Of a DNA stretch of 43,353 nucleotides, positions 1,559-23,427 are shown in pieces. The notes beneath the pieces were generated by a model, which was not told the DNA's origin, searched no databases, and saw nothing but the letters and a program-made list of their open reading frames with translations. This DNA is from Clostridia bacterium (GTDB lineage Bacteria > Bacillota > Clostridia > Christensenellales > DTU072): positions 1 through 43,353 of the forward strand of contig JAQVTZ010000002.1 of NCBI GenBank assembly GCA_028699795.1, read 5' to 3'. Position 1 is the first letter of the stretch; each line of letters opens with the position of its first letter. The position numbers and the translations under genes were made by a program.

Positions 1559-2118
1559 AAAATACAATGTCGCGAACAAAATCTTTGGTTTATATTGCGG
1601 TATTTGCCGCGCTTATTGCGATAGGCGCGTTTATCCGAATACCGTTCGGGTTGGTGCCTGCCACCTTGCAGACCGCTTTTGTGATGATGGCGGGGCTTGC
1701 CTTAGGCCCTACGAAAGCTACCGTTTCGGTGCTTATCTATCTTGCTCTGGGGCTTGCGGGCTTACCGATTTTTACTGCGGGCGGAGGTTTCGACTATATA
1801 TTTTATCCTACATTCGGCTACCTTTTGGGGTTTGTGTTTGCCGCTTGGATGACGGGTTTTTTGTTCCGGAAATTCAAACAAAAGACTTTATTCGCCGCAG
1901 TGTGCGCGGGGCTCGCAGGCGTATTCGCGGTTTATCTTATCGGTCTCCCATATCTATATCTTATAAAAAACATCTATTTCAACACCCCAATTGGAGTCAA
2001 TGTTTTGTTTGTTCAATGTTTCCTTATCTTTCTCCCCGGTGACCTGCTTACCATGTTTTTATCCGCCACGCTCGTTATCAGATTGCAGAAAATCAAAGGA
2101 TTATTCGATAATATATGA
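1555..2118 (+). CDS. bioY: Biotin transporter BioY (ECF S-component)
   Basis: From ATG 1555 (ATGA overlap with the GH5 stop) the ORF reads MKNTMSRTKSLVYIAVFAALIAIGAFIRIPF...LQTAFVMMAGLALGP...GLAGLPIFTAGGG. This is a typical BioY sequence with about 6 TM segments. The upstream in-frame extension to 1405 overlaps GH5 and was rejected. Confidence 0.88.
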   Translation: MKNTMSRTKSLVYIAVFAALIAIGAFIRIPFGLVPATLQTAFVMMAGLALGPTKATVSVLIYLALGLAGLPIFTAGGGFDYIFYPTFGYLLGFVFAAWMTGFLFRKFKQKTLFAAVCAGLAGVFAVYLIGLPYLYLIKNIYFNTPIGVNVLFVQCFLIFLPGDLLTMFLSATLVIRLQKIKGLFDNI

Positions 2119-2161
2119 GAACTCGGCTTGAATTATTTAGTAAGCGGTTCCTTAATTTCTA

Positions 2162-2190
2162 TTGCAATCGCCCCATATTTCCTTTATACT
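2162..2190 (+). promoter_or_regulatory. Putative sigma-A promoter for the GH13 gene
   Basis: -35 TTGCAA (2162..2167), 17-nt spacer, -10 TATACT (2185..2190), about 70 nt upstream of the TTG start. Confidence 0.45.
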
Positions 2191-2263
2191 TGTTTCGGCA
2201 TAAGTTTTTTTGCAAAAAAGAAACCGAAGAGAGCCACATTATTAAAATAGTAAGGATGTACCA

Positions 2264-4045: not shown

Positions 4046-4090
4046 ATAAAATCTTATAAGTAATAATATAGTAAAATACACGGTTTTCTC

Positions 4091-4118
4091 TTGCAAAATC
4101 TTGCACCTCTGTTATAAT
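4091..4118 (+). promoter_or_regulatory. Putative sigma-A promoter (extended -10) for the giant surface-protein gene
   Basis: -35 TTGCAA (4091..4096), 16-nt spacer, TGtTATAAT (4110..4118). It lies about 55 nt upstream of ATG 4174, which has an AGAGGTG RBS at 4161..4167. Confidence 0.55.
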
Positions 4119-4173
4119 AAACATGTATATATATAGGGCGCGTAATATATGCGTCCCGCCAGAGGTGCATGAT

Positions 4174-4245
4174 ATGTCAAAAACAACTAGAATAGCCGCG
4201 CTTGTTCTCATTCTAACGATGCTTTTATTAGGCGTTACCGCCTGC
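4174..4245 (+). other. Sec/SPII lipoprotein signal peptide of the giant protein
   Basis: A positively charged N-terminus (KTTR) is followed by the hydrophobic core IAALVLILTMLLLG and lipobox V-T-A-C, with Cys at 4243..4245. Confidence 0.7.
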
Positions 4246-7200
4246 TCTACCGATACGGCCAAGGTTACCGGCATACAACTTGCCGGTGAGTATCGCAATG
4301 TTTATTTGGTAGGGGAAGATCTCGACCTTTCGGGAATGGAACTTTTGTTGGAAAACAGCGACGGGACCACCTCGACCGTTAATATTGCGGATGTCCGCAG
4401 CGATATTAAGTTTCTCAATGTCAACACCGATGCTGTTACAAAACAGCTAGAAATTACAATACAATACCAAAAACAAAAAACAACATTTACGATAGATGTC
4501 GTCAATCCGCAATCCGACGAAAACAGGGTAAATGTGGTTTTTGATTTAAATATTGCTTCTTTAGATGAGCAATCCCGAAAATTTCAAGAAATTAAAGTAT
4601 TACAGCTAAGCAAGCTAAATGCGCCTTCGTCATCTCCTACCAGAGTAGGATACGCCTTCGATGGCTGGTATAAAGATACCGCACTCAAAAACCCCTGGAA
4701 TTTTTCTGTGGACCAAGTTATTTTAACCTCCCAGCATACCCTCAATACCGTTTATTTATATGCCAAATGGACTCCCTATTGCGAAGTAACTTTCTATAAA
4801 ATATTGCCTTCGGGCGAGACGACGCTTATTGCCACAAAAATGGTAAAAAAAGGTGGGTCACTTACAGATTTTCCCAATATCCCTATAGATGCGGGCGAAG
4901 AAAAATACATATTCGAATGGGATTACAGCAGTTTCGAAAGTATTACCGAAAATATCGAGGTATACACCAAAGAACCTGTATTAAAGACATACAATGTAGA
5001 ATTTTATGACAAAATAAACGATGCGGACCAACTTCTTTATATTCTCGAAGATGTTCCTTACGGCACAGACCTTTTGGACCCTTCCACCGTGCTTACCACC
5101 CAACATGGCGCGCAAATTTCTCCTTTACAAGAAATCGGTTTGCTTTCGCCCTCTAACAGAGAAAACCATGTTTTTGCCAATGCTTGGGATTATAAAGGGC
5201 TCACTTATCATATAGCAAATCCGCAAACAAATAACCCGTTGCGCAATGTCAAGCAAAGTATGCAATTGTATGCGCATTACGAAATAAAAACATTTACAGT
5301 TTCTTTCGATCTCAACTATCAAGGTCAGTCTATTACGCCGCCCTCCCCTCAAGTTGTTGCCCACAATACCCCCATCATCGATATTACCGTAACCAGAGAC
5401 GGTTACGATTTCGACGGTTGGTACAAAGATGCCCAATGTACCCGCCCTTGGAATTTTAATACCGAAAAAGTTACAGAAAACCGTACCCTTTATGCCAAAT
5501 GGACCAAGCTGTTCAAGATCGATTTTTACGCAATCTATTATGGCGATGTGGTGGGTGGCACAGAGAGGCAACCGGCGATGGACAACTCCAGTCTTTTGTA
5601 TTACCAAAATAACGACGGAATATGGGAAGACTCTAATGGTAACGAGATGTTTGCATCATCGACAATTGACCCTCAGATGACCGATCCCGTGGGCGGATTC
5701 CTTTATAACTACATCAAAAAAGATAACGTAATCGCCTATACTCGTGTTCTGATTGGTGAGGTAATGGTTCGCCAAGGCGAGACGGCGTCGGCGCTCCCCA
5801 GTGTATATAGCAGCCAAGTAACGCTTGATGGCCATACGGCAAAATGGAGCAGCACCTCTTTTGTCAATATCCAAGAAGATCGTTCTGTTTACGCCATATA
5901 CACAATACGAACTTACAATGTTAAGTTTGTGGACGGCGAAAACCAAATCGGTCCCACACAAGTAATCCCCTATAAAGGTAAGGCAATTGCTCCTAACGAT
6001 ACGAGAGACGAAAACCTTGCCAACAAAGTGGTGTTCGACAATTATGTTACCACTACACGCTGGGGGTATTCGTTTAGCGGATGGAATTCACTTGCCTATC
6101 TCAATGTGACCGAAGATACGACTATTTCGGCAACATTTACCCCTAACACATATAGGGTCACCGTTCAACTTAGTCCTGGCAATACCGAAGTACGCAACGA
6201 GTTGTACGATTCTGTTCTTACGCTTATTACCCCCAACAGAGAAGCGGAGGGGTATGATTTCGACGGTTGGTATACCACGCCCGATTACGCGCCCGGTTCC
6301 GAATGGGGCGCAGACGACAAAGTCACGGGCAATATCAGTATCTATGCGAAATGGGTCGAAATTTACACGATTACTTTTACGGACGGAGCGACAACCAATC
6401 CTTTGGTGCTTGCAACACGCAAGGTGCGCAAGGGAAACAGTTTAACCGATATCCCCGTAGTCCCCGAAATCGTAGGCAAAAACGGTATCTGGCGCGAAGA
6501 CGGCGCAATACCGAATTTCCAAAATGTGCAGCGCGATATGATTATTGCTGCCACATATACAGACAAAACTTTCAATGTAAACTTTAAAAACGGCAATCAT
6601 GACGATTATTTCTATCTTGCCAATGTGCTTTATAATACCAAAGTCGTACCGCCTCTTTCGCCCGAAGACCCGTCTCAAGCGGTTCCCGATCCCGATGCAA
6701 GTTATGTGGGGTATCAATTCGAGGGTTGGACGGTCGCAGGCGTCACAGGCTATGTAAATTTTTCGACTTACCAAATTAAGCAGGATACCACATTTATCGC
6801 AAGTTATTCCCGCCGTACATTTACTGTGCTGTTTGTCGATAACGATTACGACAGCACGGGCGTTGTTTTGCGTGAAGTAACGATAGAATACGAAGCGATT
6901 GCTTATCCGCCCGCAAACCCCCTAAAAACAGGGATGAATTTTTTGGGTTGGTCTACCGACAAAATTACTGTTTCAGACGATTTATCGATTACGGGTGATA
7001 CCGTTTTTTACGCTGTGTATCAAATAAAAGAATATAATGTTACCTTCAAAAGTATCGAAGACAACACTACTTGGGCGACAGTAAAAGTAGAGCATGGCGA
7101 ACTTGCTGCTTATCCGTCGGACATCCCTCAGCCTACTTATAATGGATTTACTTTTACGGGGTGGGATTATGATTTCAACACGCCAATTACTTCGCACAAA

Positions 7201-10200
7201 AATATTTTTGCGATATTCCAAATCAACACCTATACGATTACTTTCGTAACGGGAGAAGGCTCAACTGTAGACCCTGTGACGGCGACACATAACTCCTATG
7301 CGATTGCGCCCCAACAACCAACATATGAAAACATGGCTTTCTTGGGCTGGTATTTGGACGAAATGTACAGCGTACAATACTTGTTTGATCAACCGATGAC
7401 CTCGAATTTAACTTTGTATGCAAAGTGGTCCGAATATGTTAGCGGATTCGGCGATATTGTATTCCAATTAAATAGCGAAAACACGGCATATACGGTAGTG
7501 AGTGTCAATCCCGATGCGCTTGCGGTAAAGATTGATAACTTTTACCAAAACAAGCCTGTTACTTCTATCGGTAGCGGCGCTTTCCGCAACAACCAAAGGT
7601 TACGGGTAGTAATCTTGCCCGATACATTACAAACCATTGGCACAAACGCTTTCGAGGGATGTGTGAACCTGCTTCGTATCGACATTCCCCAACCCGTAAC
7701 CTCTATTGGTGACAATGCTTTTAACGGTTGCATCAATCTGTCTGCCGCAACTTTTACACCAAACTCGGCTTTAACGACAATCGGCAATTACGCATTTATA
7801 AATGCGCGCAGTCTTACGGGGTTGGCGCTCCCAGATACCGTTACAAATATCGGTTCGGGCGCGTTTATGGGTTGTTCTTCTTTATATAGTTTAGAAGTGC
7901 CGCGCGGTGTTACCACAATTGGCGCTTCCGCTTTCGAGAACTGTATCGGCCTTAAATATCTTATTTTCCTAAGACCTTCCCCTTGTATTCTTGGCGAATA
8001 CGCATTCGACGGTGTGACGCAGAGTTTCCGCCTTTATGTGCAGGATGTACTCGCTTATACTTCGGGCGTAACCAGCAATTGGCAAGCGGTAGGCGACAGG
8101 ATTTGTCCTTCGGGAAACATCGCATCCGATTGGTATTACAGTCTAATACAAGTCGGGGCGCACGCGAACAAACTTAGATTATTACATTATCTTGGCAACG
8201 ATACCGATTTAGCGGTACCCGAAACGCTCACTGTCGAAGGTGTCGAACGCACTGTTTATTCTTTAGGAGACTATTTATTTGACGGCAAAGTAACGGCATT
8301 CAAGATGAATTCTGATATGCCGCTTTCTGCAAACACTTTCGGTTCCGCTTCGGGGCTTATGAAACTCGAAGTAAGTATTGTAAACGAGTTGGGCGAACAA
8401 AGAGAATTGCTCAATTCCAACATCACCTATATCCGCAATGCGTTTGAAACCATCAATAGTCTAAAAGAACTTAGTATTTCTGCGGTGGCAACGCTCAAGA
8501 ACTTATTTGGCAATGTCAATCCTCCAGCCAATCTCAAAAAAGTCAATATCCTTAACGACCGAACAGAATTGCCCGCCGATATGTTTTATAATTGCCTTAA
8601 TATTGAGGAAATAACCATTCCCGCTTCTATACAGAATATAGGTAATTATGCTTTCTACGGATGTTATAATCTTCATAGCGTTTCGATAGCGCCTATCAGC
8701 GGTCTTACAAGTATCGGCGAGAGCGCCTTCGAAAACTGTGTCAGCTTACAACAGATTGCGATACCCGATTCCGTTACCGTTATCGAAAGCAATGCGTTCA
8801 AGGCCACGCCTTATGTAACCAATTCCGACGAAACTTTCGTCGTATTGGGAGACGGAATACTGTATTCTTACAACGGCAACGACGAAACGGTTATTCTGCC
8901 CAAAGAAATCAAACAGATCAATGAGTACGCTTTTTATGGCGCTTCTTTGCGCAGCTTTATGTTCGAAGAAGGATCCGTCTTACAAAGCGTAGGAGATTAC
9001 GCTTTTGCCGAATGTGTAAATTTAGAGCATGCGGTTTTCCCAGAAACCATGGCTTCGTTGGGCGAAGGAGCATTCTATAACGATACAAAACTTTCCAAGG
9101 TTATATTCTTCTTATATGATCAATTCGGCGTCAGGATTTACATTGCCGACACGACCAGCATATTTACAAACTGCATGCATACTTTAGAGATTATTGTACC
9201 GTTAGCAAGCAGCTCAAGATTTTTAGAGTCAGATAATAACTGGGAAGAAATTATCCGCGAACAGCTCGATTATCCCGGATGGTCCGGGCTTTCCAGCGCC
9301 AACCTGTATTTCAATGAAGAATGGATTTATAGTTTAGAAGCGGGTCAAGGGATTACCCTGTTGCAATATTACGGTTCCAACAAAGATCTAGTGATACCTT
9401 CCCAAATTGGTAGCGATGAAGTGATAGAACTTGCCAACTATACCATACCGCGTAATACCATAACTTTAGATTTTAGCGTCAGTGTCGCAAGCGATTCCCG
9501 CGTGTTTGGCGCACTCAACGGGCTTACCGAAGTTACGATAAGAGACACGACGAACGCCACCTTTATTATGGAAAAAGATTATATCTACAATATGTTGGCT
9601 GCCAACCGTTCGCTTCACAAAATCAATGTGGGCGGCAAAATGAGTATTTATTCCATTTTAGGAGACCGACTACCGCCCTCCAATATTACGGCGGTTACGG
9701 TATTTGACGGTGAGACCTCGCTTGCGGACGAGATGTTCAAAGATTGTCAATATATTGTCGATATCGAATTGCCCGACTCGTTAACCGATGTGGGTAAGCA
9801 AGCCTTTAATGGAAGCGGTTGGGAAAACGCCTATGATGGCGAATTTGTTACGATTCTGCGGGACTTAGATGGCAGAGGTTTATTGGTAAGCTATAAGGGC
9901 AACCAAAAACATGTCGTGATACCTTCCGATGTAAAAGCAATTAACCGTATGTTGTTTGAAAACAATGCATTTGTTGAAATTGTGAGCGCAAACAATCTTG
10001 AAGCGATTTATGACAATGCCTTTGCGGGCGCGGAGACGCTAAGCAAAATTATTTTAGGCGGAGATGCCCCATCATTCGGAACCGAAGTGTTCAAAGACCT
10101 TATGGAAGGGGCGCAGCTTTTTGCAGATGAGGACAAACTTGCGGGATACCTTTCCGCCGATCTTACAGGCATAGAGCTTGTTGCCAACCATATCACCGTA

Positions 10201-13200
10201 TCGGGAGATTACATGCTACAGACACTGGATGCGACGCATGCGGTGCTGCTGCAATATACAGGCGGCGGAAGCGATGCAGAAATACCCGTTTTTGTGGGCG
10301 ATTACGAAATCGTATCTATAGGCAATAACGCTTTGTATTCCGATATCCAAAACTTGACCTTCCGAGTCTCCGATATTCTCACTCAGTATTCTTTTGGTAA
10401 CCTAAAACTTCTACAATCGGTTACCATACTCGATACAAACAATATTCTTTGTGATAAAGAATATATTTACACACTGTTAACAGAAAACATCAATCTTACC
10501 AAAATATCTTATAATGGCGGAGACTGCACGCTCATCGATTTGTTAAACGGAAACAGTCCTGTTGCTTCCATTAACACGGTAGAAGTGATAGATGGCGCTA
10601 CCTCAATCATAGACGGGATGCTCCAAGAGTACGCCAATATCACCAACATTATATTGCCGTCCACTATACAAACCATAGGGTTGTATGCCTTTGAGAATAC
10701 CGCATGGTATGCGGCGCAGCCCGACTTTGTTATCATATTGGATGGATACCTTTACAAATACAAAGGGACCGAATCCAATGTTACGGTACCCAATACGGTA
10801 AAAGTAATAGGCGAAAGAGCGTTTGCCGATTATCGCGAAGGCGTTTGGGTCGGCAATATGTATGTCAGATCCCTCAAATTCGAAGGCGGAAGTTCGGCGA
10901 CCACAATTTTGTCCGAAGCGTTTTTGTCTTGCGCATTGCTCACAAAAATAGATCTTCCGTGGTCTCTTACCCAAATAGCAGAAAACGCGTTCGACGGCAC
11001 AGGAATGGCGGTAGAGAACGATACTTTGCTTGCCAGAGGCGACAGAGGCGATGCGCTTATCAGATATTATGGTACAAGTTCGCAATACGAGTTGTCCGCC
11101 GGTGTTATTACCATCAATGCTTCGGCGTTCGAAAGCAACGAATACTTGACTGATTTCGTAATCCCCCAAGATAGTCTGCTTGTAATGATCGGTCCGTCGG
11201 CATTTAAGAATTGTATCAATCTGTCTTCCGTCACAATCAATAACGGCGGAGTCTTAAGCGATGTAACAGATATATTGGCGTTAGAATATATCGAAGATAT
11301 CGGCGCCGATGCTTTTGCAGGTACGCCTTGGATGCAATCTCTTGGCAATTATCTTTTTGGCAACGGCAGACTGTTGCTTGCCAAAAACGGTGATGACACA
11401 CTGGTGCTTTCGGACAGCGATAAACCGGCGGGTTACGAACTTAACATGATTGCGAGCAGTGCATTCGCATCGTCTCATGCAACCAAATTGTATATCGATA
11501 TGATATCTCCTCTCTCTCTGGGATTGGGCTCGTTAGACTCGCTTTCCGCAATTTATGTACCTTACGATTTATACGGGATATTTGTTGCTTATTGGAACGG
11601 TTACGCAAGCAAACTGATTCCCGTGCATGTTGCCGAAGGTTCTTTTGTGAATGCCGCTGGTCAGTTGGTTTATGTAAACAAAACCGATACCGCAATTGTC
11701 TTAACAGACCATTGCGGACTGACGGAAATTGCTCCCGACGCCTTTGTGGGAACGGCGGCAACGACTTTGGTCTTAACATCTGTTATACCGCCTGTCATGG
11801 GAGGCGATTGGCTTCACGGCATCAATACCATTTATGTAGCGCCCGAAGCCGTGGACGCATATAAAGCGGCTTGGAGTTCCTACGCTTCTTCTATCCAAAG
11901 CTATACATTGTTGCAAGAAAAATTCCTTGTTTATGACAATATTCTGTATCAGTATGACGGCAATGAAGAAGTGGTAACTGTTCCCATTGGTATCCAAGAG
12001 ATTGCGGGACACGCTTTTGCGAATGCAAACAATATCAAATTCCTTTTTGTTCCGTCGGATGTGACAACGGTACAGTCTTATGCTTATTTCGGATTGCAAA
12101 ATGCGGCGGTAGCGGCAGAACTTTCCAATATCGAAGGCTGGTCTGAAGATTTCGCGGCAAACCTTCTTGGTTTACATACTTCCGTGAGCGCGGGCGTGGC
12201 GGGGATAGAGGGCGACTATATTACCAAACCAGTATCCGGAGGGGCCGAAATCATTCGTTATTTAGGCAATCAAAACAGTGTGACGATACCCGATTCTATC
12301 GCAGGACAAGCGGTTTACGGCATTGCTTCCAAGGCTTTTGCAGGCAATCCGAATATTATCCGAATTACTCTTCCAAGCAGCGTGGAGATTGTCGCCGAAA
12401 ATGCATTCTACGGGTGTGAATCGTTAACCGTTATATTCAAAAGCGCCGCTATCCCTTCGGGGTGCCAAGCGGGCTGGAACAACTGGGTAGAAGAAAGTTA
12501 TGTAAATGGTAATTCAGAATTTTCCGATGCATACGGTAACCAATATATCAACAATGCCGGAAACGCGGTACTCATAAAAGCCGTGTCAGGGCACGAATCA
12601 ATGTCGATTTCTTTGGCGGGAGGACTTACCGTCAAAACCATCGCTGCCAATGCGTTTGCCGAAGTGACGGGATTACGCTCATTAAGGCTTTCCGACACCA
12701 TTATCAATGTCGGTATTTCGGCGTTCATAGGTTGTGAACAAACGGTGCTTTATTTAGATGCCTCACAGGTGCCAGCCACTTGGGCGACAGGCTGGACGGA
12801 CTTTGTATTGGATTATTATACGGATTACAAAAAAGTCTTTACCGTCAACGATGGCGGAGCGGAAGGCACCGGCTTCAAAATGCTTCTTAACGAAGGCGCT
12901 CTTATTATTATAGATTATCAAGGCGATCCTGTTGATCTTGTCATTCCTAACACGGCGATGTACTATTCAATAAATTATTATGTTACCGAAATCTCTTGCT
13001 ACGCTTTTTATAATAAGACAATGCTAGAGTCCGTAACACTAAATGCCGAAATGAAAAAAATAAGCGCGTACGCCTTTGCAGGCTGTACCGCCTTAACAAG
13101 TATCGATTGGAACTCCAAACTGGAGGCAATCGGAACAGGCGCATTTAGTAATAATGCTTGGTTAGACGGGCAAAATTATATTATTGACCAAACTACCCTT

Positions 13201-16200
13201 TATTTGTATGCCGACGCTGCCAATACGGCGGTTATCCCTTCCGAAATAACGAATGTGATTGACGGCGCGTTTTCTATGGGGATTGCGCGGTATGCCGTAT
13301 TTACGATGTCCGTTCCGCCCGAAGTAGCCGATAATGCTTTTATCGGCGTACAAACCGTACTGGTTCCGCAAGGATATCTAGAGGTGTATCGCGCGGCATG
13401 GCCCGCTTACGCAGATTTTATTCAAGCCTACACAGAGGTGAACGGCGCGATGTATTACCGCAATACATTGGTCTATTACAATGGAGACGGAGAAGAATTA
13501 ACTGTTCCTTCCTCTATTGAAGGCTACATTGTTAACGAAATTTCTGACAAAGCTTTCTTAGGAAGCGCGAGCCTCAAAAAATTGGTATTGCCTTCTAGTA
13601 TAAGCACTATGGGCGAAAGCGTGTTTTTGGGTTGTTCTAATCTTGTCATTTATTTGGAAGGCGATAACTCGTTTGCTCCCGACTGGTCTGCAGGCGCAAT
13701 GTATGTATATGCCGATACCTCTAGCCAAACAATTGTTGTAAACGGAGTGCGTTATTTTGAGGAGCTAAACGCCTTTACCGTTATCGGGGTAGAAGAAGGC
13801 TACAAAGAAGTGTTTGTCGAAAGCACCGTAAACGGGCTCGATGTTATCAAAATCGGGCATAGAGCGTTTGCGGGCGGCGGGTTATATAAAGTTACGCTTC
13901 CTGTCTCTATCCAAACTATTGACGCGACTGCATTCCAAGGAGCGGACAATACGGTACTAATTATCTTGGCAGACACCTTGCCCGACGAAACAAACGGTTG
14001 GAGCGCGGACATCAACGAAATCTATGTTGGTGAAAGCAACTTTGTCACCGCGGGCGATTATACGGTCTTCGCAAACGGTGATACGGCGGTATTGTTCGGA
14101 TATAACGGTTCATTAAACGGGATAGCTTTACCCGATACGGTAGCCGATAAAACGCTGACAGGTATCGCAAGCTATGCTTTCCTTGATGCTAGCCTATTTA
14201 AAATAGTACTAAACGAATCTATGGATAAGGATAGCATAAGCGCAAAAGCTTTTGCGGGAATGACAGCAGAATGTGTTGTTTATGTGCGTCAGAATATCAA
14301 TATCAATGATTATGCTTGGGCAGAGGATGTCTATGAAGCTCATGCCGATTATCAAGAGTATGATAGCGGGGATTACAAGGTGATTCCCATGCAATTAGAG
14401 GAAGAAAGCGGGTTAATGATTGTGGGGAGCACAATTTCTATAACGGATTATCTCGAAATACCTTCTTCATTAGCGGTTACAGGGCTTGGTACATTACCCG
14501 TTATAGGTATTGCAAGCTACGCATTCAGCTTACTTCTTTCTAATCCTTACGCCGTCATCATACCCGAGAGTGTAAGCTATATCGGGGGCAAAGCGTTTTC
14601 GAAGATAGAAGAATACGGCACAGCTTCCAATGTTTTTGTAGAAAGTGAAAATGCCAAAACGGGCTTCGCAGAGGGCTGGGACAACGGATTTTCCGATACT
14701 TTTTATAATTGCAATGCGGCTGCAACGGTAAACGGTGTTGTCTATCTTGCAGACGGAGATGAAGCCGTTGTAGTAGGTTATACGGGAGACTCTTCTGTTG
14801 CGGTAATAGAGGGGAAAGTTATTATAGACGGTAACAGTTTCGAAGTTACCAAGATTGCCGCTTATGCGTTCGCTTTTATGCCGCATTTAACAAGAATCTT
14901 TATCCCCGACAGCGTGATAAGCGTTCGCGACCGTATCGCATACGAAAGCGGTGCAGATGTCGTGATGTCGCTCGAGCACTCCATGGTTGCTTCGTATTGG
15001 CCTGTGGGTTGGAACAACTTTGGGGCGCAGCAAGTGAAGATAAGCTCTCAATTGGTCGCAAGTAACGATCTGTTGTTATTGTTCCACAATAATACCTTAA
15101 GTGTTATAAGATATAGCGGTACTGATGCCACAATCACGATACCAGAGTCCGTTTCAGTCGGCGCCAATGTTTACGAAGTAACGGCAATCGAGCCTTATGC
15201 GTTCTATCATTCCGATGCATACCGTATTTATGTACCCGAAAGCGTAGACAGCATAGGAGAATTTGCTTTTGCAGATTGCGACCATGCTATCTTGTTTATC
15301 GGGGACACCAGCTCCGATCCTTCTTGGGATTATACATACGGAGGTTCGACGATTGCATACGATAGCGATGTTAAATATACATATTACAATTATACAGCGT
15401 TCGAGCAGAGAGGGGGGTTCCGTTATGTGCTGGACGGAATATCAGCGCATATTGTAGATTATGTCGGCACCGATACCGAACTTGAGATAGAAGATACGAT
15501 TATCATCGATATGGTAACCTACGAGGTCAATGCCATTGGTCCGTACGCGTTTGCGTTCCTTACTGATATCACAAAAATCATTCTTCCCGACACTATAAAT
15601 ATGGTGTACCAAGATGCGTTTTTAGGGACTTCCAATGCCGCGCTTTATCTTACCCATGTTATGGTGCCCGTTTATTGGCCCCAAGGATGGGAGGGAGACA
15701 CATTGCATGTCACTCTTAATGCGGCGAATACTTGCGAAGAACAACTCTTCCAATATATCTGTTATACCCCCGAAGTAGGACAAAGAACGGCAACGATTAC
15801 GGGTTTTTCCGGAGGCTCCGTCTCAGAGCTTACCATTCCCGCATCCTTTATTCACCCAATTGACGGTTTAAATTATAAGGTAACCCGAATTGCAGAGTAT
15901 GCATTTGCCAATAGGACAGAATTAAGTTCGGTTAATTTGCCGCAGAATGAAGATAGCAACCTAACCGAAATTGGCGCATACGCTTTCTATCGGTGTATCC
16001 GCTTATCGACAATTTCCAATTTTGACAGCAAAATTGTGAATATCGGAGAAAACGCCTTCCAGTCTACTCTATGGTACCAAAACATTTCGGATAAATATTT
16101 AAAAAGTAACGATAGACTAAGGCTCTACACAGGAAACGAAAGCGCGGTAATCTTTGATGCGCAAACCCAAATCGATATTTTGGGCGGAGCGTTCGCCTCG

Positions 16201-18363
16201 AGCGAGGAATTAAAGTATGTGGTATTTTTAGACGGAATCAAACCCGAAGTACATTCGGACGCATTTGTTTCGGTAGAAAAAATACTTGTTCCCGAAGCGA
16301 ATCTCCAGATGTATCAAAATCTGTGGCCCGAGAACAGCCACAAAATAGATAGCTTTCATGAAGAAAACGGCATGCTGTTCTACCAAAATAAACTTATCGC
16401 CATTATCAATAAAGTTGACACGGATTTAACGATACCTCAGCAAGTTGAAGATTATACCATAGACACTATCCTTTCACATGTCGACAAAACGGGTCGCGAT
16501 ACTTTATTAAGTCTTACGATACCCCGAACAGTCACAACGATAGGCCCCAACACTTTCCCGTACACCGCGGTATATTTTGAGGTTGCAAACAGATTGGAAG
16601 GATACAGCACCGCCTTTACCGCATTAGAAGAGTATTTTGATATAGGCGAATTCTTCCATTTAGAAGGCGCAACATTTGCGGTTATCGATGGCAAAGCAAA
16701 GCTGATAAATTATTACGGAGATGCAAAAGAATATACAATACCTCTTAGTGTTTTTTATAACGGAACCGATTACGAAGTATCCGCAATCGGCTCGTATGCT
16801 TTTGCCCAAAACAACTATGTAAAGAGCGTCTATTTGCCCAAAGGTATCGACAGCATTGGTGTGTACGCTTTCAGAACGGCGTTCTCAGGGCCTCAAGAGC
16901 CCGAGTTTATCTTGTACACTGGTCTTTCGGAGGATTCTTATCCTTGGTACAATAATTGGGAAATGCCGGTATACTTTAATATCCCCAAAGTACAAAGTCA
17001 AGGCTCCATGAGATATGTTGTAACAGATGACGGGATTACGATAACACAATATTTCGGAACAGTAAGCGTGTTTGACATCCCGCAATCTCTTACCATAAAC
17101 CAAGTCGCGATTAGTGTGACGGCAATAGGCGCGTACGCATTCTACAATGTATCCTCATTGGCCAATATCACCATTCCCTCAAGTGTAAGAATGATAGGCA
17201 AACATGCCTTTACAGGAACAAAATGGTTGCAAGACGCAGGAGATTTCATAGTTGACAATAGTAGGCTGTTGCTTTATAATGGTGAAGACAAAAATGTTAC
17301 AATCGAAGAGTCATCGGGCATAAGAAGTATTGTAGGCGGCGCATTCTTAAGCAGCAGGGCATTCAGGTTGGTCATCAACGGAGACACACCGATGATAGAG
17401 TTGTACGACCACGCTTTCGACGGAATCGAAATCATCGATGTGCCCAGTGTCGCATCAGACATTTACCGAGAATATATCTGGACAAATTATCAGTCCATGA
17501 TTATCGGAAGTGTACGCATCGGCGAATACGGGTTCTCACTTAACCCAGACGGGACAGCAAAAATTATAGGATATTACGGCGAGTCCGCTACGCCCGAATT
17601 GCCTTCTTCCGTCACTGTTGGCGAAAGATCGTATACCGTCAATGAGTTGGGTGACAAGTTGTTCAAAGGCAGAACCGAACTTATCCAAATAATATTGCCC
17701 CGAAGCATACAGTATCTCGGAGAAAATGTCTTTACAGATTGTAACAATACCGTAGTCTATTTGCGGCACGAAGTTATCCCCGCCTGGCCGACGGGTTGGT
17801 ACAATGACTTGTTGCATGTTTATTCCAATATCGACAACTTTGTGGCAATAGGCGATTACACCGTCCAACTCAACGCAGGCAATCACGAACTAACAATAGT
17901 ACAATATAATGGGGTTGCATCCTCGGTTGCCATTTCGTCTATGATTTACGGAGCATCCGAATATACGGTAACACGCATAGGGTATTACGCCTTTTATCAC
18001 AAGACCTTTGTCAGCGAAGTTACTATGGCGGTCACGGTAGAGCAAATCGACAAGTATGCTTTCGAAGGTACTGCTTGGGCAAGCAACGGCACAGACAAAA
18101 AAGTCTTCGGCAATAAACTGATGCTGTATACCGGGAGCGCCACTTCGCTAACAATAAGCGAAACAGATGCCATTACGGCCATATGCGGCGGCGCATTTGC
18201 CTCTTCCGATGTGACCGTATTAGATATTACGGCAGAGGCCACGATTACTTTAGACGAGGGCGCGCTACAAGGCATCCAAACGATTTATGTAAACGCGGCC
18301 ACAGTAGACGAATTCAAAGATTTATGGCCGCAATACGCCGAGATAATTACGGCAAGACCTTAG
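4174..18363 (+). CDS. Giant (4,729 aa) surface lipoprotein: Ig-like domain, about 12 Flg_new (Listeria-Bacteroides) repeats and a very long BspA-type LRR region
   Basis: The uninterrupted ORF 4123..18363 is taken from the ORF track. The preferred start is ATG 4174, which has an RBS and gives MSKTTRIAALVLILTMLLLGVTAC (lipobox VTAC). Recurrent G[YF]xFxGW...LYAKW motifs and xIGxxAFxxCxxLxxIxIPxSV motifs run throughout. No LPXTG, SLH or cell-wall-binding repeats were seen. Confidence 0.9.
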   Translation: MSKTTRIAALVLILTMLLLGVTACSTDTAKVTGIQLAGEYRNVYLVGEDLDLSGMELLLENSDGTTSTVNIADVRSDIKFLNVNTDAVTKQLEITIQYQKQKTTFTIDVVNPQSDENRVNVVFDLNIASLDEQSRKFQEIKVLQLSKLNAPSSSPTRVGYAFDGWYKDTALKNPWNFSVDQVILTSQHTLNTVYLYAKWTPYCEVTFYKILPSGETTLIATKMVKKGGSLTDFPNIPIDAGEEKYIFEWDYSSFESITENIEVYTKEPVLKTYNVEFYDKINDADQLLYILEDVPYGTDLLDPSTVLTTQHGAQISPLQEIGLLSPSNRENHVFANAWDYKGLTYHIANPQTNNPLRNVKQSMQLYAHYEIKTFTVSFDLNYQGQSITPPSPQVVAHNTPIIDITVTRDGYDFDGWYKDAQCTRPWNFNTEKVTENRTLYAKWTKLFKIDFYAIYYGDVVGGTERQPAMDNSSLLYYQNNDGIWEDSNGNEMFASSTIDPQMTDPVGGFLYNYIKKDNVIAYTRVLIGEVMVRQGETASALPSVYSSQVTLDGHTAKWSSTSFVNIQEDRSVYAIYTIRTYNVKFVDGENQIGPTQVIPYKGKAIAPNDTRDENLANKVVFDNYVTTTRWGYSFSGWNSLAYLNVTEDTTISATFTPNTYRVTVQLSPGNTEVRNELYDSVLTLITPNREAEGYDFDGWYTTPDYAPGSEWGADDKVTGNISIYAKWVEIYTITFTDGATTNPLVLATRKVRKGNSLTDIPVVPEIVGKNGIWREDGAIPNFQNVQRDMIIAATYTDKTFNVNFKNGNHDDYFYLANVLYNTKVVPPLSPEDPSQAVPDPDASYVGYQFEGWTVAGVTGYVNFSTYQIKQDTTFIASYSRRTFTVLFVDNDYDSTGVVLREVTIEYEAIAYPPANPLKTGMNFLGWSTDKITVSDDLSITGDTVFYAVYQIKEYNVTFKSIEDNTTWATVKVEHGELAAYPSDIPQPTYNGFTFTGWDYDFNTPITSHKNIFAIFQINTYTITFVTGEGSTVDPVTATHNSYAIAPQQPTYENMAFLGWYLDEMYSVQYLFDQPMTSNLTLYAKWSEYVSGFGDIVFQLNSENTAYTVVSVNPDALAVKIDNFYQNKPVTSIGSGAFRNNQRLRVVILPDTLQTIGTNAFEGCVNLLRIDIPQPVTSIGDNAFNGCINLSAATFTPNSALTTIGNYAFINARSLTGLALPDTVTNIGSGAFMGCSSLYSLEVPRGVTTIGASAFENCIGLKYLIFLRPSPCILGEYAFDGVTQSFRLYVQDVLAYTSGVTSNWQAVGDRICPSGNIASDWYYSLIQVGAHANKLRLLHYLGNDTDLAVPETLTVEGVERTVYSLGDYLFDGKVTAFKMNSDMPLSANTFGSASGLMKLEVSIVNELGEQRELLNSNITYIRNAFETINSLKELSISAVATLKNLFGNVNPPANLKKVNILNDRTELPADMFYNCLNIEEITIPASIQNIGNYAFYGCYNLHSVSIAPISGLTSIGESAFENCVSLQQIAIPDSVTVIESNAFKATPYVTNSDETFVVLGDGILYSYNGNDETVILPKEIKQINEYAFYGASLRSFMFEEGSVLQSVGDYAFAECVNLEHAVFPETMASLGEGAFYNDTKLSKVIFFLYDQFGVRIYIADTTSIFTNCMHTLEIIVPLASSSRFLESDNNWEEIIREQLDYPGWSGLSSANLYFNEEWIYSLEAGQGITLLQYYGSNKDLVIPSQIGSDEVIELANYTIPRNTITLDFSVSVASDSRVFGALNGLTEVTIRDTTNATFIMEKDYIYNMLAANRSLHKINVGGKMSIYSILGDRLPPSNITAVTVFDGETSLADEMFKDCQYIVDIELPDSLTDVGKQAFNGSGWENAYDGEFVTILRDLDGRGLLVSYKGNQKHVVIPSDVKAINRMLFENNAFVEIVSANNLEAIYDNAFAGAETLSKIILGGDAPSFGTEVFKDLMEGAQLFADEDKLAGYLSADLTGIELVANHITVSGDYMLQTLDATHAVLLQYTGGGSDAEIPVFVGDYEIVSIGNNALYSDIQNLTFRVSDILTQYSFGNLKLLQSVTILDTNNILCDKEYIYTLLTENINLTKISYNGGDCTLIDLLNGNSPVASINTVEVIDGATSIIDGMLQEYANITNIILPSTIQTIGLYAFENTAWYAAQPDFVIILDGYLYKYKGTESNVTVPNTVKVIGERAFADYREGVWVGNMYVRSLKFEGGSSATTILSEAFLSCALLTKIDLPWSLTQIAENAFDGTGMAVENDTLLARGDRGDALIRYYGTSSQYELSAGVITINASAFESNEYLTDFVIPQDSLLVMIGPSAFKNCINLSSVTINNGGVLSDVTDILALEYIEDIGADAFAGTPWMQSLGNYLFGNGRLLLAKNGDDTLVLSDSDKPAGYELNMIASSAFASSHATKLYIDMISPLSLGLGSLDSLSAIYVPYDLYGIFVAYWNGYASKLIPVHVAEGSFVNAAGQLVYVNKTDTAIVLTDHCGLTEIAPDAFVGTAATTLVLTSVIPPVMGGDWLHGINTIYVAPEAVDAYKAAWSSYASSIQSYTLLQEKFLVYDNILYQYDGNEEVVTVPIGIQEIAGHAFANANNIKFLFVPSDVTTVQSYAYFGLQNAAVAAELSNIEGWSEDFAANLLGLHTSVSAGVAGIEGDYITKPVSGGAEIIRYLGNQNSVTIPDSIAGQAVYGIASKAFAGNPNIIRITLPSSVEIVAENAFYGCESLTVIFKSAAIPSGCQAGWNNWVEESYVNGNSEFSDAYGNQYINNAGNAVLIKAVSGHESMSISLAGGLTVKTIAANAFAEVTGLRSLRLSDTIINVGISAFIGCEQTVLYLDASQVPATWATGWTDFVLDYYTDYKKVFTVNDGGAEGTGFKMLLNEGALIIIDYQGDPVDLVIPNTAMYYSINYYVTEISCYAFYNKTMLESVTLNAEMKKISAYAFAGCTALTSIDWNSKLEAIGTGAFSNNAWLDGQNYIIDQTTLYLYADAANTAVIPSEITNVIDGAFSMGIARYAVFTMSVPPEVADNAFIGVQTVLVPQGYLEVYRAAWPAYADFIQAYTEVNGAMYYRNTLVYYNGDGEELTVPSSIEGYIVNEISDKAFLGSASLKKLVLPSSISTMGESVFLGCSNLVIYLEGDNSFAPDWSAGAMYVYADTSSQTIVVNGVRYFEELNAFTVIGVEEGYKEVFVESTVNGLDVIKIGHRAFAGGGLYKVTLPVSIQTIDATAFQGADNTVLIILADTLPDETNGWSADINEIYVGESNFVTAGDYTVFANGDTAVLFGYNGSLNGIALPDTVADKTLTGIASYAFLDASLFKIVLNESMDKDSISAKAFAGMTAECVVYVRQNININDYAWAEDVYEAHADYQEYDSGDYKVIPMQLEEESGLMIVGSTISITDYLEIPSSLAVTGLGTLPVIGIASYAFSLLLSNPYAVIIPESVSYIGGKAFSKIEEYGTASNVFVESENAKTGFAEGWDNGFSDTFYNCNAAATVNGVVYLADGDEAVVVGYTGDSSVAVIEGKVIIDGNSFEVTKIAAYAFAFMPHLTRIFIPDSVISVRDRIAYESGADVVMSLEHSMVASYWPVGWNNFGAQQVKISSQLVASNDLLLLFHNNTLSVIRYSGTDATITIPESVSVGANVYEVTAIEPYAFYHSDAYRIYVPESVDSIGEFAFADCDHAILFIGDTSSDPSWDYTYGGSTIAYDSDVKYTYYNYTAFEQRGGFRYVLDGISAHIVDYVGTDTELEIEDTIIIDMVTYEVNAIGPYAFAFLTDITKIILPDTINMVYQDAFLGTSNAALYLTHVMVPVYWPQGWEGDTLHVTLNAANTCEEQLFQYICYTPEVGQRTATITGFSGGSVSELTIPASFIHPIDGLNYKVTRIAEYAFANRTELSSVNLPQNEDSNLTEIGAYAFYRCIRLSTISNFDSKIVNIGENAFQSTLWYQNISDKYLKSNDRLRLYTGNESAVIFDAQTQIDILGGAFASSEELKYVVFLDGIKPEVHSDAFVSVEKILVPEANLQMYQNLWPENSHKIDSFHEENGMLFYQNKLIAIINKVDTDLTIPQQVEDYTIDTILSHVDKTGRDTLLSLTIPRTVTTIGPNTFPYTAVYFEVANRLEGYSTAFTALEEYFDIGEFFHLEGATFAVIDGKAKLINYYGDAKEYTIPLSVFYNGTDYEVSAIGSYAFAQNNYVKSVYLPKGIDSIGVYAFRTAFSGPQEPEFILYTGLSEDSYPWYNNWEMPVYFNIPKVQSQGSMRYVVTDDGITITQYFGTVSVFDIPQSLTINQVAISVTAIGAYAFYNVSSLANITIPSSVRMIGKHAFTGTKWLQDAGDFIVDNSRLLLYNGEDKNVTIEESSGIRSIVGGAFLSSRAFRLVINGDTPMIELYDHAFDGIEIIDVPSVASDIYREYIWTNYQSMIIGSVRIGEYGFSLNPDGTAKIIGYYGESATPELPSSVTVGERSYTVNELGDKLFKGRTELIQIILPRSIQYLGENVFTDCNNTVVYLRHEVIPAWPTGWYNDLLHVYSNIDNFVAIGDYTVQLNAGNHELTIVQYNGVASSVAISSMIYGASEYTVTRIGYYAFYHKTFVSEVTMAVTVEQIDKYAFEGTAWASNGTDKKVFGNKLMLYTGSATSLTISETDAITAICGGAFASSDVTVLDITAEATITLDEGALQGIQTIYVNAATVDEFKDLWPQYAEIITARP
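4258..4503 (+). other. Ig-like (Big_3-like) domain
   Basis: AKVTGIQLAGEYRNVYLVGEDLDLSGMELLLENSDGTTSTVNIADV...LEITIQYQKQKTTFTIDV matches the usual bacterial Ig-like pattern: Y.VGe.LDLsG..l.v.ysDGt...v, ending ...i.y.g....f.I.V. Confidence 0.5.
4525..7428 (+). repeat. Array of about 12 Flg_new / InlB-B-type (Listeria-Bacteroides) repeats
   Basis: Canonical G-[YFM]-x-F-x-G-W cores begin at nt 4648, 5401, 6064, 6250, 6709, 6931, 7144 and 7333. Each is followed 25-35 aa later by [LIV]YA.[WYF]. Degenerate copies (..F.W / ..KW) sit at 4903, 5170, 5830 and 6478. Confidence 0.8.
7435..18360 (+). repeat. BspA-type leucine-rich-repeat (LRR_5-like) region organised in higher-order cassettes
   Basis: There are dozens of roughly 23-25-aa units such as VTSIGSGAFRNNQRLRVVILPDTLQTIGTNAFEGCVNLLRIDIPQPVTSIGDNAFNGCINL. 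Cassette-ending motifs recur (details in findings). Confidence 0.85.
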
Positions 18364-18420
18364 CAATAAATAGCAGAGCTATTCGATATAAAAAACAAAT
18401 CACTTACGGGAGTATGTTAA

Positions 18421-20949
18421 ATGAAACAGAGCTTTAAGAAATATTTTGTTGTAATGCTTGCTGTTGTTTTAATATCAAGTTTGATGCTTGGTTGTAACGG
18501 TTGCATTAAAGATCCGCCAACGACGACACCTACAGACTATACCGTCGATATCGACATTTTGCCGGATCTCTATGACCTCAGTGTCAGCGCCAACGACTAT
18601 GCGCCAAGCGCCGTGACCTACGAATCGGTTGTAAGAAGCACGCAGGCGGATAAACTGCTGGCAAAGCAAGAGTCCGAAAAAGAGAAGCATAATTATATCG
18701 ATACCAATAGCGACGGCAATCTGGATTCCAACTTCGATACCGTCACAGGCAAATATGCTTGGGACAATGTTTACTATGATGCAGATGCCCAAGAATATGT
18801 ATGGGATGAAGACGGCGACGAAGGCGAAACCACTACCTTTACCAAGATTTTCCTTTTCTGCGATATCAATGCTCTCATCGGCAGAATGGCCGCTGCCGCA
18901 TTGCCGCAAGACAAGATGATAGAACTAATTGACTACATTACGCGCGATGACCCCGCGGGAGACGATTATCTCATGACAGCGGGTACAGGAAGCGCGATAC
19001 GCGACTACGAAGAGCTGGACGAACTTTACGATGTGTATGACGAAGACGACTCCGACAGCAATTACAGAAAGTTGCAACAAAAACGCCGCAAAGTGATGCA
19101 CGAAGTATTCGGCATCTTCCAAGACGATGCAGCATCCGCGGCAAGAACGGCAATCGAAATTCTCGCCTATGCCCAAGAAGTTGTCGCCACCGAAATGATA
19201 GACGATTACGAAGAAAACACAGGCTCGCGCCCCGGCTTTTACGATTTCTTTAAAGGGGAATTGTTCGACTACGATACGCTGGTTTATTTCCTTGCCTTCA
19301 ACGAAACTTGCGGGGCGACCGGAGATTATTTGCTAAGCAATGTCAATTATACGATTTCTGCCGTCAACAAAAAAGAGATGACCAAACTTTACGGCTACTA
19401 TTATCAATATCAAAAAAGAGATTTCGACCTCTTTACCGATACAGAATACTTCGAGTATTTGGATTTGAGCCTTTTAGATTATTACGATAATAAAGCCGAC
19501 GCGCTCAAATACAGAGATTACGACAGAGAGCATTATGCGGGCGCCTACAGATACTCTGCAGAATTTTATGAAAAATATTATCAAGCGCATTTCTTATTCC
19601 AAGGCAAACAAGAAAAGCAAGATATTAGAGTCTACGGTGTCGATAAAGATTGGTCTACCAGTTATGCCAACGAAATGCAGAAAGGTTGCGATGCCGGTAT
19701 GGAAGCGACCCTAAAGCTGAGCGATGTCAACTGGGAGTATAGCGCAACAGACAGCAATGTCACAAACTACAACATTGCGGCGAAAGCGTATTACAGCTTG
19801 CCCGAAGATGACAGAACGGGCAGCAAGCCCTCTAACGAAGCCAGACTTAAGTTGGTCAAACTCAGAGTCGAACAGCTTAAGAGCCAACATTATACCATAA
19901 CCCATAAATCGATTGAATCTGCCGATCTCGGCAATGCATTAAAGTACCAGATTTATTCTTTCAGCGGTGATTATGCCCGCACCTTGCTGTCTAACCGCAA
20001 AGACGATATTTATATGACGGCGGAGCGCGCAAGAATCGCTCCCGATGATACAGAAAAAATCAGCGCAAAGGACGAGGAAATCGGTCGCAACACAGCGATG
20101 TTTGCCAATCATAATTATTTCTATATCGAAAAGGGCAATGTGACACATCAGTTATCAATTGCGAATGAATATAATTGGGGTGAGATTGCCGATGGAATGG
20201 AACAAACTATCGCGTATGACTTCGAAGAATATCAAACGAAATATCTTGCAGGAGAACCGCCGGAAGTTATCGATGGCGAAACGGTAGATTATAATGACCC
20301 CGTAGATATCCAATTCGAAGACACGCTTATCAAAAAGAATATTGTAGGCGAAGGCGCCAACCAAAAGAAAGAGTACGATACCGACTGGGAAATCTCCCGT
20401 CTTTTGGATAACCACGAAAATGTCTTCCGTTATGCATTCGGACAGGTTGTCGTGTACTATATGGAAGGGGACAACCTCGAAGATTATACGCTAAAAGGCG
20501 AATATGTTACCGATAGTCAACATGCGCCCGATAGCATTATCGACCCCGAATCACCTGAGTTCTACAATAACACGATAAAAGCCATTAGTACATCCGACTT
20601 CGAGAAATTCTCAAGTAACGCCATAAACTATAGCGATTATCAAGAAGAAAGTTACGAATCCGATGAAAGAGTCGAGCTTGCCTTGTTTGCAGCTGGCGAA
20701 TGGGAGGGTATTTTGCCGACCAACGGGAATGTAAGCGGCTCTCCCTCGCTGTATACCTTCCAAAAAACCGAAACAGTTTCGGGCAATGCCAGAAATTATA
20801 ATTATTATCTTATTTTCGAAGGTTGGTATGTCGATGAGGACTTGCAATACAAAGCCGAATTGGAAGACGACCAGTTTGGAGAAGAGTACGATTATGATAT
20901 TCGCCTCTACCCCGGATATAAAGTTATAAAGGTGTTGCAAGAACAGTAA
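18421..20949 (+). CDS. Highly acidic D/E/Y-rich lipoprotein of unknown function, with a C-terminal Flg_new-like motif
   Basis: 842-aa ORF with GGGAG 8 nt upstream. Signal and lipobox read MKQSFKKYFVVMLAVVLISSLMLGC, followed by a PPTTTPT linker. An EF-hand/dockerin-like loop DTNSDGNLDSNFD lies at 18700..18738. The C-terminus reads LIFEGWYVDEDLQYKAE...IRLYPGYKV (20815..20919). I recognise no other family. Confidence 0.8.
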   Translation: MKQSFKKYFVVMLAVVLISSLMLGCNGCIKDPPTTTPTDYTVDIDILPDLYDLSVSANDYAPSAVTYESVVRSTQADKLLAKQESEKEKHNYIDTNSDGNLDSNFDTVTGKYAWDNVYYDADAQEYVWDEDGDEGETTTFTKIFLFCDINALIGRMAAAALPQDKMIELIDYITRDDPAGDDYLMTAGTGSAIRDYEELDELYDVYDEDDSDSNYRKLQQKRRKVMHEVFGIFQDDAASAARTAIEILAYAQEVVATEMIDDYEENTGSRPGFYDFFKGELFDYDTLVYFLAFNETCGATGDYLLSNVNYTISAVNKKEMTKLYGYYYQYQKRDFDLFTDTEYFEYLDLSLLDYYDNKADALKYRDYDREHYAGAYRYSAEFYEKYYQAHFLFQGKQEKQDIRVYGVDKDWSTSYANEMQKGCDAGMEATLKLSDVNWEYSATDSNVTNYNIAAKAYYSLPEDDRTGSKPSNEARLKLVKLRVEQLKSQHYTITHKSIESADLGNALKYQIYSFSGDYARTLLSNRKDDIYMTAERARIAPDDTEKISAKDEEIGRNTAMFANHNYFYIEKGNVTHQLSIANEYNWGEIADGMEQTIAYDFEEYQTKYLAGEPPEVIDGETVDYNDPVDIQFEDTLIKKNIVGEGANQKKEYDTDWEISRLLDNHENVFRYAFGQVVVYYMEGDNLEDYTLKGEYVTDSQHAPDSIIDPESPEFYNNTIKAISTSDFEKFSSNAINYSDYQEESYESDERVELALFAAGEWEGILPTNGNVSGSPSLYTFQKTETVSGNARNYNYYLIFEGWYVDEDLQYKAELEDDQFGEEYDYDIRLYPGYKVIKVLQEQ

Positions 20950-20973
20950 TGATTCAAAACAATACTCGTTTTT

Positions 20974-21009
20974 ACCCCCGCGCAGGTACCCGCGCGGGGG
21001 TAATTTTTT
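20974..21009 (+). terminator. Rho-independent terminator closing the surface-protein gene pair
   Basis: A 10-bp GC-rich stem pairs ACCCCCGCGC (20974..20983) with GCGCGGGGGT (20992..21001). The loop is 8 nt and a TTTTTT tract follows at 21004..21009. Confidence 0.85.
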
Positions 21010-21064
21010 GCCTATCTTTATAGGTTGCGGGTATAGAACATCAGGCGTCCCAATAAAATACTAT

Positions 21065-22076: not shown

Positions 22077-22106
22077 GTGATTAGATACTAAATCACGAGG
22101 TATACT

Positions 22107-23405: not shown

Positions 23406-23427
23406 TCTTTTTCATGGTTATAGAAAG

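Follow-up and report, generated by a model that had tools for sequence, protein, structure and literature searches.

BspA of Tannerella forsythia and other surface proteins of the LRR_5 family are built from a leucine-rich repeat (LRR) unit of 23 amino acids (aa) with an IGxxAF core. BspA-like proteins have been described as surface or secreted, and the known ones carry one LRR_5 domain of ~140–400 aa. BspA itself, from a diderm bacterium, has Big_2 domains and a C-terminal signal for type IX secretion. Gram-positive LRR_5 proteins with adhesin-type annotation include PcpA of Streptococcus pneumoniae (4CP6), which is held by choline-binding repeats, and HupY/LrrG of Streptococcus agalactiae (NF047961). 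Internalin B (InlB) of Listeria monocytogenes (2Y5P), a 630-aa protein held by GW modules, combines an LRR binding domain with B-repeats on a Gram-positive surface. In large proteins of Clostridia, LRR domains have been linked to adhesion (West-Roberts et al. 2023, bioRxiv 10.1101/2023.11.21.568195). Here we analyze a 43,353-nt stretch of a Clostridia bacterium (contig JAQVTZ010000002.1, positions 1 to 43,353; the whole stretch is called the window below) in which one gene (4174..18363, + strand; 4,729 codons plus stop) encodes a protein with the same repeat family, 23-aa unit and IGxxAF core as BspA. Whereas known BspA-like proteins have a single LRR_5 domain, this giant protein has ~3,640 aa of LRR cassettes, a 12-domain stalk and an apparent lipid anchor. 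It is an extreme yet typical member of a populous class, not a new kind of system. What merits follow-up is its lineage-wide pairing with a confidently predicted lipoprotein of unknown family, which we call the partner.

The giant protein consists of a lipoprotein signal, one Ig-like domain and two long repeat arrays. An earlier note, made from the letters of the window, had described an uninterrupted frame of 4,729 codons for a protein with an SPII-type lipobox, an Ig-like domain behind the signal, about 12 Listeria–Bacteroides repeats, about 3,640 aa of BspA-type LRRs and no second anchor. This description stands on every point, and we regard the structure so drawn (gene, lipobox and domain order) as nearly certain. 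The mature protein would have a mass of ~517 kDa and an isoelectric point (pI) of 4.3. Its signal peptide and lipobox (aa 1–24; 4174..4245, +) end in LTMLLLGVTA/C: MSKTTRIAALVLILTMLLLGVTAC conforms to a lipobox pattern of the PROSITE PS51257 type, its Cys being residue 24, the signal peptide reads MSKTTRIAALVLILTMLLLGVTA up to that Cys, with n-region charges K3 and R6, and residues 3–28 are the sole strongly hydrophobic segment of the protein. The lipobox is present in 6/6 complete orthologues checked (L004, L006, L007, L026, L030 and L032), down to 27% identity. Judged by this signal, the giant protein is probably lipid-anchored on the cell surface.

Behind the signal lies a Big_3 Ig-like domain (PF07523; aa 43–109; 4300..4500, +) with a marginal score (22.8 bits against a cut-off of 21.2); a weak Big_3 match is also recorded in the orthologues of L004 and L036. 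It is followed by 12 Flg_new units (Listeria–Bacteroides or InlB B-repeat type; aa 117–1086; 4522..7431, +), which we propose to be a stalk. The array matches PF09479 at E = 1e-57 (192 bits, cut-off 27) and TIGR02543 at 81 bits (cut-off 21), and its tandem units of ~70 aa carry the G-[YW]-x-F-x-G-W motif of the family. With unit boundaries set by direct reading, 8/12 units are significant by a self-built hidden Markov model (HMM), and the remaining 4/12 are degenerate with the W kept. Among PDB sequences, the array matches the B-repeat of InlB (2Y5P) and the N-terminal domain of a sialidase. The rest of the protein, 3,643 aa (aa 1087–4729; 7432..18360, +), is a BspA-type LRR region of ~20 cassettes that matches LRR_5 (PF13306) in 18 stretches at E = 9.2e-205 (669.2 bits, cut-off 27.7). 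The three families named in the earlier note for a Pfam check (Flg_new, LRR_5 and Big_3) are thus all above cut-off and, together with an overlapping LRR_8 match, are the only Pfam families that match the protein. The Pfam scan found no SLH, choline-binding, CW_binding, GW or other wall-binding module, and Pfam and NCBIfam found no toxin, enzyme or secretion-system domains. Direct reading of the C-terminus (...KDLWPQYAEIITARP) found no LPXTG, and there is no hydrophobic C-terminal segment.

The LRR region is regular in sequence and resembles solved family members in its predicted fold. It contains 61 [ILV]xxxAF motifs, none of them before aa 1132, with a modal spacing of 23, as against 3.5 ± 1.7 in shuffled sequences. 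Units were counted by this motif with the shuffle control, a single-LRR-unit HMM being too weak for mapping. Most of the cassettes begin with a strand of the form '...Y-x-G-x(4-6)-hydrophobic-x-I-P'. An AlphaFold2 model of the last 500 aa (predicted local distance difference test score, pLDDT, 68.9) consists of confident blocks between low-confidence linkers, and its top PDB matches by Foldseek are 4FD0, 4FS7, 4FDW, 4GT6, 6MLX, 4CP6 and 4H09 (E 1e-7 to 6e-4). In the model, the fold is the LRR solenoid seen in the solved gut LRR_5 structures (4FD0, 4FS7, 4FDW, 4GT6 and 4H09) and in TpLRR of Treponema pallidum (6MLX); PcpA (4CP6) is likewise among the fold matches.

Likeness to the Gram-positive systems does not extend beyond shared domain families. 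HupY/LrrG is the best NCBIfam match of the giant protein, at 197 bits against an equivalog cut-off of 1,250, and the two have the repeat family alone in common. Pfam finds no counterpart in the giant protein of the choline-binding module of PcpA. InlB is similar in presenting an LRR binding domain together with B-repeats, which belong to the same Flg_new family as the giant's stalk, but the giant protein has LRR_5 rather than internalin LRRs, and its order is reversed, with the stalk first and the LRRs distal. The anchor (a lipobox) and the length (4,729 aa) also differ from those of InlB. No internalin N-cap or LRR-adjacent domain was found by Pfam, leaving the B-repeat alone in common with internalins, and the protein falls outside the wall-anchored class as defined by LPXTG, SLH, choline-binding, CW_binding or GW modules.

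The giant gene is a native, intact chromosomal gene of an uncultured Christensenellales-like Clostridium, and not an artefact. Counted from the first ATG, the frame is open over 4,746 codons (4123–18363), while the ATG at 4174 gives the 4,729 aa described here; there are 0 ambiguous bases. A stop-free run of 4,746 codons has a chance probability of ~10^-125 at the base composition of the window. Relative synonymous codon usage agrees with that of the housekeeping genes in the window (r = 0.89, against −0.02 for the +1 frame), and G+C content resembles that of the adjoining genes. The source is nevertheless a metagenome-type contig of 43 kb, from which one might suspect that the ORF is a decaying pseudogene or a product of misassembly, such as several LRR genes joined into a chimera, and one short-read assembly does break within the gene. 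This JGI metagenome contig (L001) corresponds to window 1492–5439 at 99.92% and stops at 5439, 16 nt past a 26-nt Flg_new motif repeat, GACGGTTACGATTTCGACGGTTGGTA (5398–5423), that recurs at 4645 and 6247. Short-read assembly of the giant gene seems liable to break even at repeats as short and diverged as these. However, the 14.5-kb region is free of tandem repeats, none of its direct DNA repeats exceeds 36 nt, and its internal protein repeats are only 23–45% identical (by chunked BLAST; a whole-protein self-BLAST returned only the self-match), so that there is nothing for an assembler to mis-join. Furthermore, a second assembly contains the same full-length gene call: in the Logan assembly of SRR22315503, a 20.6-kb contig (L003) matches window 8421–22101 at 99.956% without gaps, and its called gene of 4,746 residues differs by 1 aa within the last 3,314 residues. 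Among strain-level single-nucleotide polymorphisms, those in the giant gene are synonymous in 3 cases and non-synonymous in 1, and the 4 in the partner gene are all synonymous. Native codon usage and co-linear, intact orthologues of 2,436–4,604 aa in seven other genomes also speak against an artefact or pseudogene, which we consider extremely improbable and effectively refuted already. In one sheep-rectum metagenome-assembled genome (MAG; L029, 5443–9876), the open reading frame (ORF) before the partner is closed at only 1,477 aa and lacks a signal peptide; a split or a frameshift may interrupt the giant gene there.

Co-linear orthologues occur throughout a lineage of related bacteria. We searched exhaustively with HMMER, using the last 1,200 residues as query against 1.84 billion cluster-representative proteins, and obtained 121,700 matches at E ≤ 1e-3. 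The top match, P0145 (4,604 aa; N-terminus MSKITRVLLLILVFGLLMCFVTAC), is a true orthologue that aligns to giant residues 1–4499 in a single high-scoring segment pair at 49% identity, with only two insertions of at least 8 residues. Its gene order matches the window (alpha-amylase, giant, an 827-aa partner, Na/Pi cotransporter, Condensation-like protein and LuxS, continuing with M29, acyltransferase, SpoVT and MurJ-like protein), and the flanks agree on both sides. Neighboring proteins at the P0145 locus are 64–85% identical to those of the window and the partner 52%; the lower identities of the giant (49%) and partner indicate that both evolve faster than their housekeeping neighbors while the architecture is kept. 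Related uncultured Christensenellales-like Clostridia carry orthologues in the same chromosomal slot, with called lengths of 4,604, 4,551, 4,437, 3,636, 3,595, 2,466 and 2,436 aa, and the window protein, at 4,729 aa, is the longest family member seen.

Divergence is uneven along the protein. Identity to P0145 is 56–66% over aa 1–1600 and mostly 32–52% beyond, and the last ~230 residues are unmatched. The distal part (aa ~2390–4729; 11341..18360, +) diverges fastest: in 13 of the distant orthologue loci the best alignment stops at giant residue 2387–2394, while in the closest relatives (L028, L009 and L004) a co-linear alignment reaches residues 4443–4552. Outside the closest relatives, then, no co-linear counterpart of the distal half was seen.

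Giant size and a lipid anchor recur elsewhere in the LRR_5 family. Among the best 150 of the 121,700 HMMER matches, 33 have at least 4,000 aa and 20 at least 4,500 aa, the longest having 6,432 aa, and 54 show a lipobox-type N-terminus, from which it follows that both the size class and the lipid anchor recur within the LRR_5 domain family. The remark in the earlier note that proteins above 4,500 aa are rare holds for bacteria in general but fails for this family, given the 20 such proteins among the best 150 matches, and the homologue check that it proposed finds the length class not to be unique (33 of the best 150 matches have at least 4,000 aa). Other giant LRR_5 proteins from public metagenomes and genomes, such as P0146 (6,193 aa) and P0157 (6,432 aa), share the domain family and size class without a co-linear architecture. 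Only P0145 and the syntenic orthologues are co-linear with the window protein; the other HMMER matches share repeats, not architecture. When the last 500 aa served as query in a word-index search, no protein above 871 aa was returned, and the matches had 21–29% identity over most of the query; taken alone, this result is misleading on the absence of large relatives, and the exhaustive HMMER search corrected it. Neither the giant protein (whichever start was used) nor PGK had a record in exact-sequence look-ups, and a species-genome scan with exact 8-mer peptides of the giant protein found no relative, these patterns being too strict. An 830-aa ORF at L002 6796–9288 (a 98-kb contig) is unrelated: its best segment is 35% identical to the Flg_new stalk, and it is a repeat-family match, not an orthologue.

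The giant gene is accompanied by a second lipoprotein gene. Both this pairing and the lineage-wide co-linear orthologues were absent from the earlier note and are added here. The partner gene (18421..20949, +) starts 57 nt past the giant stop, with a GGGAG ribosome-binding site (RBS) ahead of it and no terminator in the gap, and encodes an 842-aa, acidic, Tyr-rich lipoprotein of an uncharacterized family (pI 4.3, 9.3% Tyr; lipobox LMLGC, in the sequence MKQSFKKYFVVMLAVVLISSLMLGC). An intrinsic terminator-like site (20972..21012, +; 12 pairs, 9 of them G-C, then TTTTTT) follows. Because there is no terminator between the genes, a strong one after the partner and a conserved pairing, the giant and partner genes probably form one two-gene transcription unit, which this site closes.

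The partner family is conserved and, in the databases searched, free of known domains. Searches of the partner against Pfam (E up to 10), NCBIfam and a PDB sequence profile gave no match. The family comprises 37 clusters of ~740–915 aa (one a 523-aa fragment), 0 of which have a Pfam domain, and its named members are each a 'hypothetical protein' of Clostridia or Christensenellaceae MAGs. A lipobox is found in 35/37 clusters; the 2 exceptions lack a signal peptide and look truncated. A second search, with the partner profile, recovered 35 of the 37 clusters and, beyond these, two short fragments; none of the sequences recovered has a known domain. When one genome per species was scanned with the profile, 25 species were found to carry the partner, including Ca. 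Stercoripulliclostridium species, Christensenella sp. UBA3944, Clostridiales bacterium Firm_09 and Christensenellaceae MAGs; the record titles mention, among other sources, samples derived from sheep, goat, roe deer and chicken. A giant orthologue lies directly upstream of the partner in 20/21 loci with enough upstream DNA, and 13 of those 20 upstream ORFs are open through the entire 9–10 kb flank. In the profile searches the conserved partner turned up only in the Christensenellales-like lineage, a homologue in L033 apart. That homologue (9824–12505) stands alone on a 973-kb Clostridia MAG contig, between AMP-binding regulator-like and ABC-transporter genes, which indicates that, beyond the core lineage, a member of the partner family can occur by itself.

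An AlphaFold2 model of the partner, built with a 38-sequence alignment, has a mean pLDDT of 84.1 and a predicted template modeling (pTM) score of 0.82. It places a large all-helical domain at aa ~139–609 and a beta-rich domain at aa ~615–840, the latter ending in an F-x-G-W-Y-x-D motif that is Flg_new-like. Foldseek searches with the model gave a best E of 0.5 in the PDB, with template modeling (TM) scores of at most 0.12, and a best E of 0.25 among viral models. As modeled, the partner is without a detectable structural relative among the solved structures and viral models searched. One tentative interpretation, which we hold possible but do not favor, is that the giant and its ~850-aa partner are an obligate two-component surface apparatus specific to the Christensenellales-like gut and digester lineage, in which the partner would be an assembly or docking factor, or a co-receptor, for the giant protein. 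If this were true, the repeated lengthening of the distal LRR array, from 2,436 to 4,729 aa of protein across species, would track niche or ligand specialization.

On balance, and with moderate confidence, we favor the view that the giant is a lipid-tethered, stalk-mounted, multivalent binding protein. Bacterial lipoproteins are made by Sec export, lipidation by Lgt and cleavage by signal peptidase II (LspA). The giant precursor would accordingly be exported by Sec, Lgt would attach a diacylglycerol to Cys24 and signal peptidase II would cleave before Cys24, so that the lipid on this residue would hold the N-terminal end of the protein at the outer side of the cytoplasmic membrane. The Big_3 domain and the 12 Flg_new units, together ~1,060 aa of small beta-domains, would serve as a spacer through and past the cell wall. 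The LRR cassettes would form a string of short curved solenoids, whose many concave faces could bind ligand multivalently; candidate ligands are a protein or glycan of host or mucus, a food particle or a partner microbe. The fast-diverging distal cassettes may be the exposed part that defines the ligand or antigen. The partner lipoprotein, which would be anchored in the same membrane, probably aids assembly, docking or co-binding. An adhesin or host-interaction role is suggested by the domain families. Several points count against this view. The lipoprotein call rests on a pattern match and its conservation, and no lgt or lsp gene is among the annotated genes of the window. Confidence in the modeled LRR tail is no more than moderate (pLDDT 69), and the model, being a multi-module chain, has low TM-scores in Foldseek. 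The stalk role of the Flg_new units and the contact between giant and partner are things that we infer. Finally, the partner homologue of L033 (22% identity) occurs without a giant gene, and the pairing is thus not absolute.

Two other functions for the same architecture have to be weighed. The giant might be a structural coat or fibril rather than an adhesin, forming a layer or 'fuzz' against phage, the immune system or bile, or a spacer between cells, an idea that we consider unlikely; just as unlikely, to our mind, is its corollary that the LRR cassettes are mainly bulk scaffold and the partner a base plate. A coat would fit the occupation of the same core-chromosomal slot across the lineage, beside housekeeping genes and not on a mobile island, and a module order kept with almost no indels across 4,500 residues. 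Many envelope-layer proteins are acidic, and the giant and partner are both very acidic (pI ~4.3). Conversely, Pfam found no SLH, cell-wall-binding or other wall-attachment domain, and the LRR_5 relatives of tested function, BspA, PcpA and HupY/LrrG, are adhesins or binding proteins. Rapid divergence of the distal cassettes likewise suits variation of a ligand or antigen better than a packing lattice. The second possibility concerns retention: the protein could be cut by signal peptidase I or shed once lipidated, to act as a released binding or aggregation factor or to be carried on membrane vesicles, rather than being held by its lipid. The giant protein has no second anchor module, and one N-terminal lipid on a 517-kDa chain may be readily lost. 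However, the lipobox Cys is kept in all complete orthologues and in 35/37 partner proteins, which argues that lipidation is under selection, and the membrane-proximal part is the most conserved. We therefore rate release as quite improbable, and retain the lipid-tethered binding protein as the preferred interpretation.

Animal guts and anaerobic digesters widely harbor Christensenellales-type Clostridia, most of which are uncultured. To our knowledge, almost nothing is known of their cell surfaces. The locus gives this lineage a trackable, conserved surface module, consisting of a giant LRR lipoprotein and a lipoprotein of unknown fold, and it is an obvious candidate for attachment to hosts, particles or partner microbes. 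It also illustrates that a repeat protein of very great length can be stable: every cassette is matched by an orthologue of its own in a related species, and we find no concerted evolution or recent amplification among the cassettes of the giant. Such stability is useful for judging whether giant ORFs in metagenomes are real.

Control signals upstream of the giant gene make 4174 a better start than 4123. A promoter-like site (4091..4118, +; TTGCAA-16 nt-TATAAT, with TG ahead of the -10 hexamer and 10/12 matches) would, if used, put the transcript start at or just past the ATG at 4123. An RBS read directly from the sequence, AGAGGTG (4161..4167, +), sits 6 nt 5' of the ATG at 4174. In L004, the orthologous locus of another species, conservation extends to the promoter, the RBS region with its CCAGAGGTG...ATGTCAAAA stretch and the MSK start, while the remaining spacer has diverged. 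The same interval holds an imperfect 21-nt inverted repeat (4091–4111 / 4160–4180), with a counterpart in L004 at 9946–10019. Its arms are the promoter spacer, GCACCTCTG, just 5' of the -10 box, and the RBS, CAGAGGTGC; the core, CACCTCTG / CAGAGGTG, is retained in the orthologous locus and the DNA between the arms has diverged. This repeat could be chance plus conservation of promoter and RBS, or a regulatory hairpin if some transcripts begin farther upstream. We did not adopt it as a switch, as the perfect core is 9 nt, about the chance level within 800 nt, and we rejected phase variation or an invertible promoter, there being no simple-sequence or tandem repeats.

The window as a whole is an ordinary segment of a Clostridia chromosome. 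Its genes include GH5, BioY, alpha-amylase, Na/Pi cotransporter, LuxS, M29 peptidase, SpoVT and a MurJ-like protein, as well as MazG, Dus, PGK, TIM, iPGM, PyrG and TrkHA, and an Rfam scan of the window found no known RNA elements. Upstream of the giant gene (302–4045) are a GH5 cellulase, BioY and an alpha-amylase-family gene. In L004 (1–9850) the same alpha-amylase gene is preceded by a full glycogen cluster, with a branching enzyme, two GlgC/D-like genes, glycogen synthase and phosphorylase. The differing upstream genes indicate that the upstream side is only partly conserved, while the downstream side is stable across the lineage. Within the downstream genes, a 432-aa protein (22107–23405) with weak matches to Condensation (PF00668) and WS_DGAT_C only lies between the Na/Pi cotransporter and LuxS in the closer L004, L034 and L035, and is missing from that slot in the more distant L006, L036 and L037. 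The adjoining LuxS gene was called mechanically as an ORF of 237 aa (23402–24115). Its LuxS domain begins at residue 62 and orthologues have 171–182 aa, suggesting that the true LuxS start is probably near codon 59 and not at the ATG that overlaps the preceding gene.

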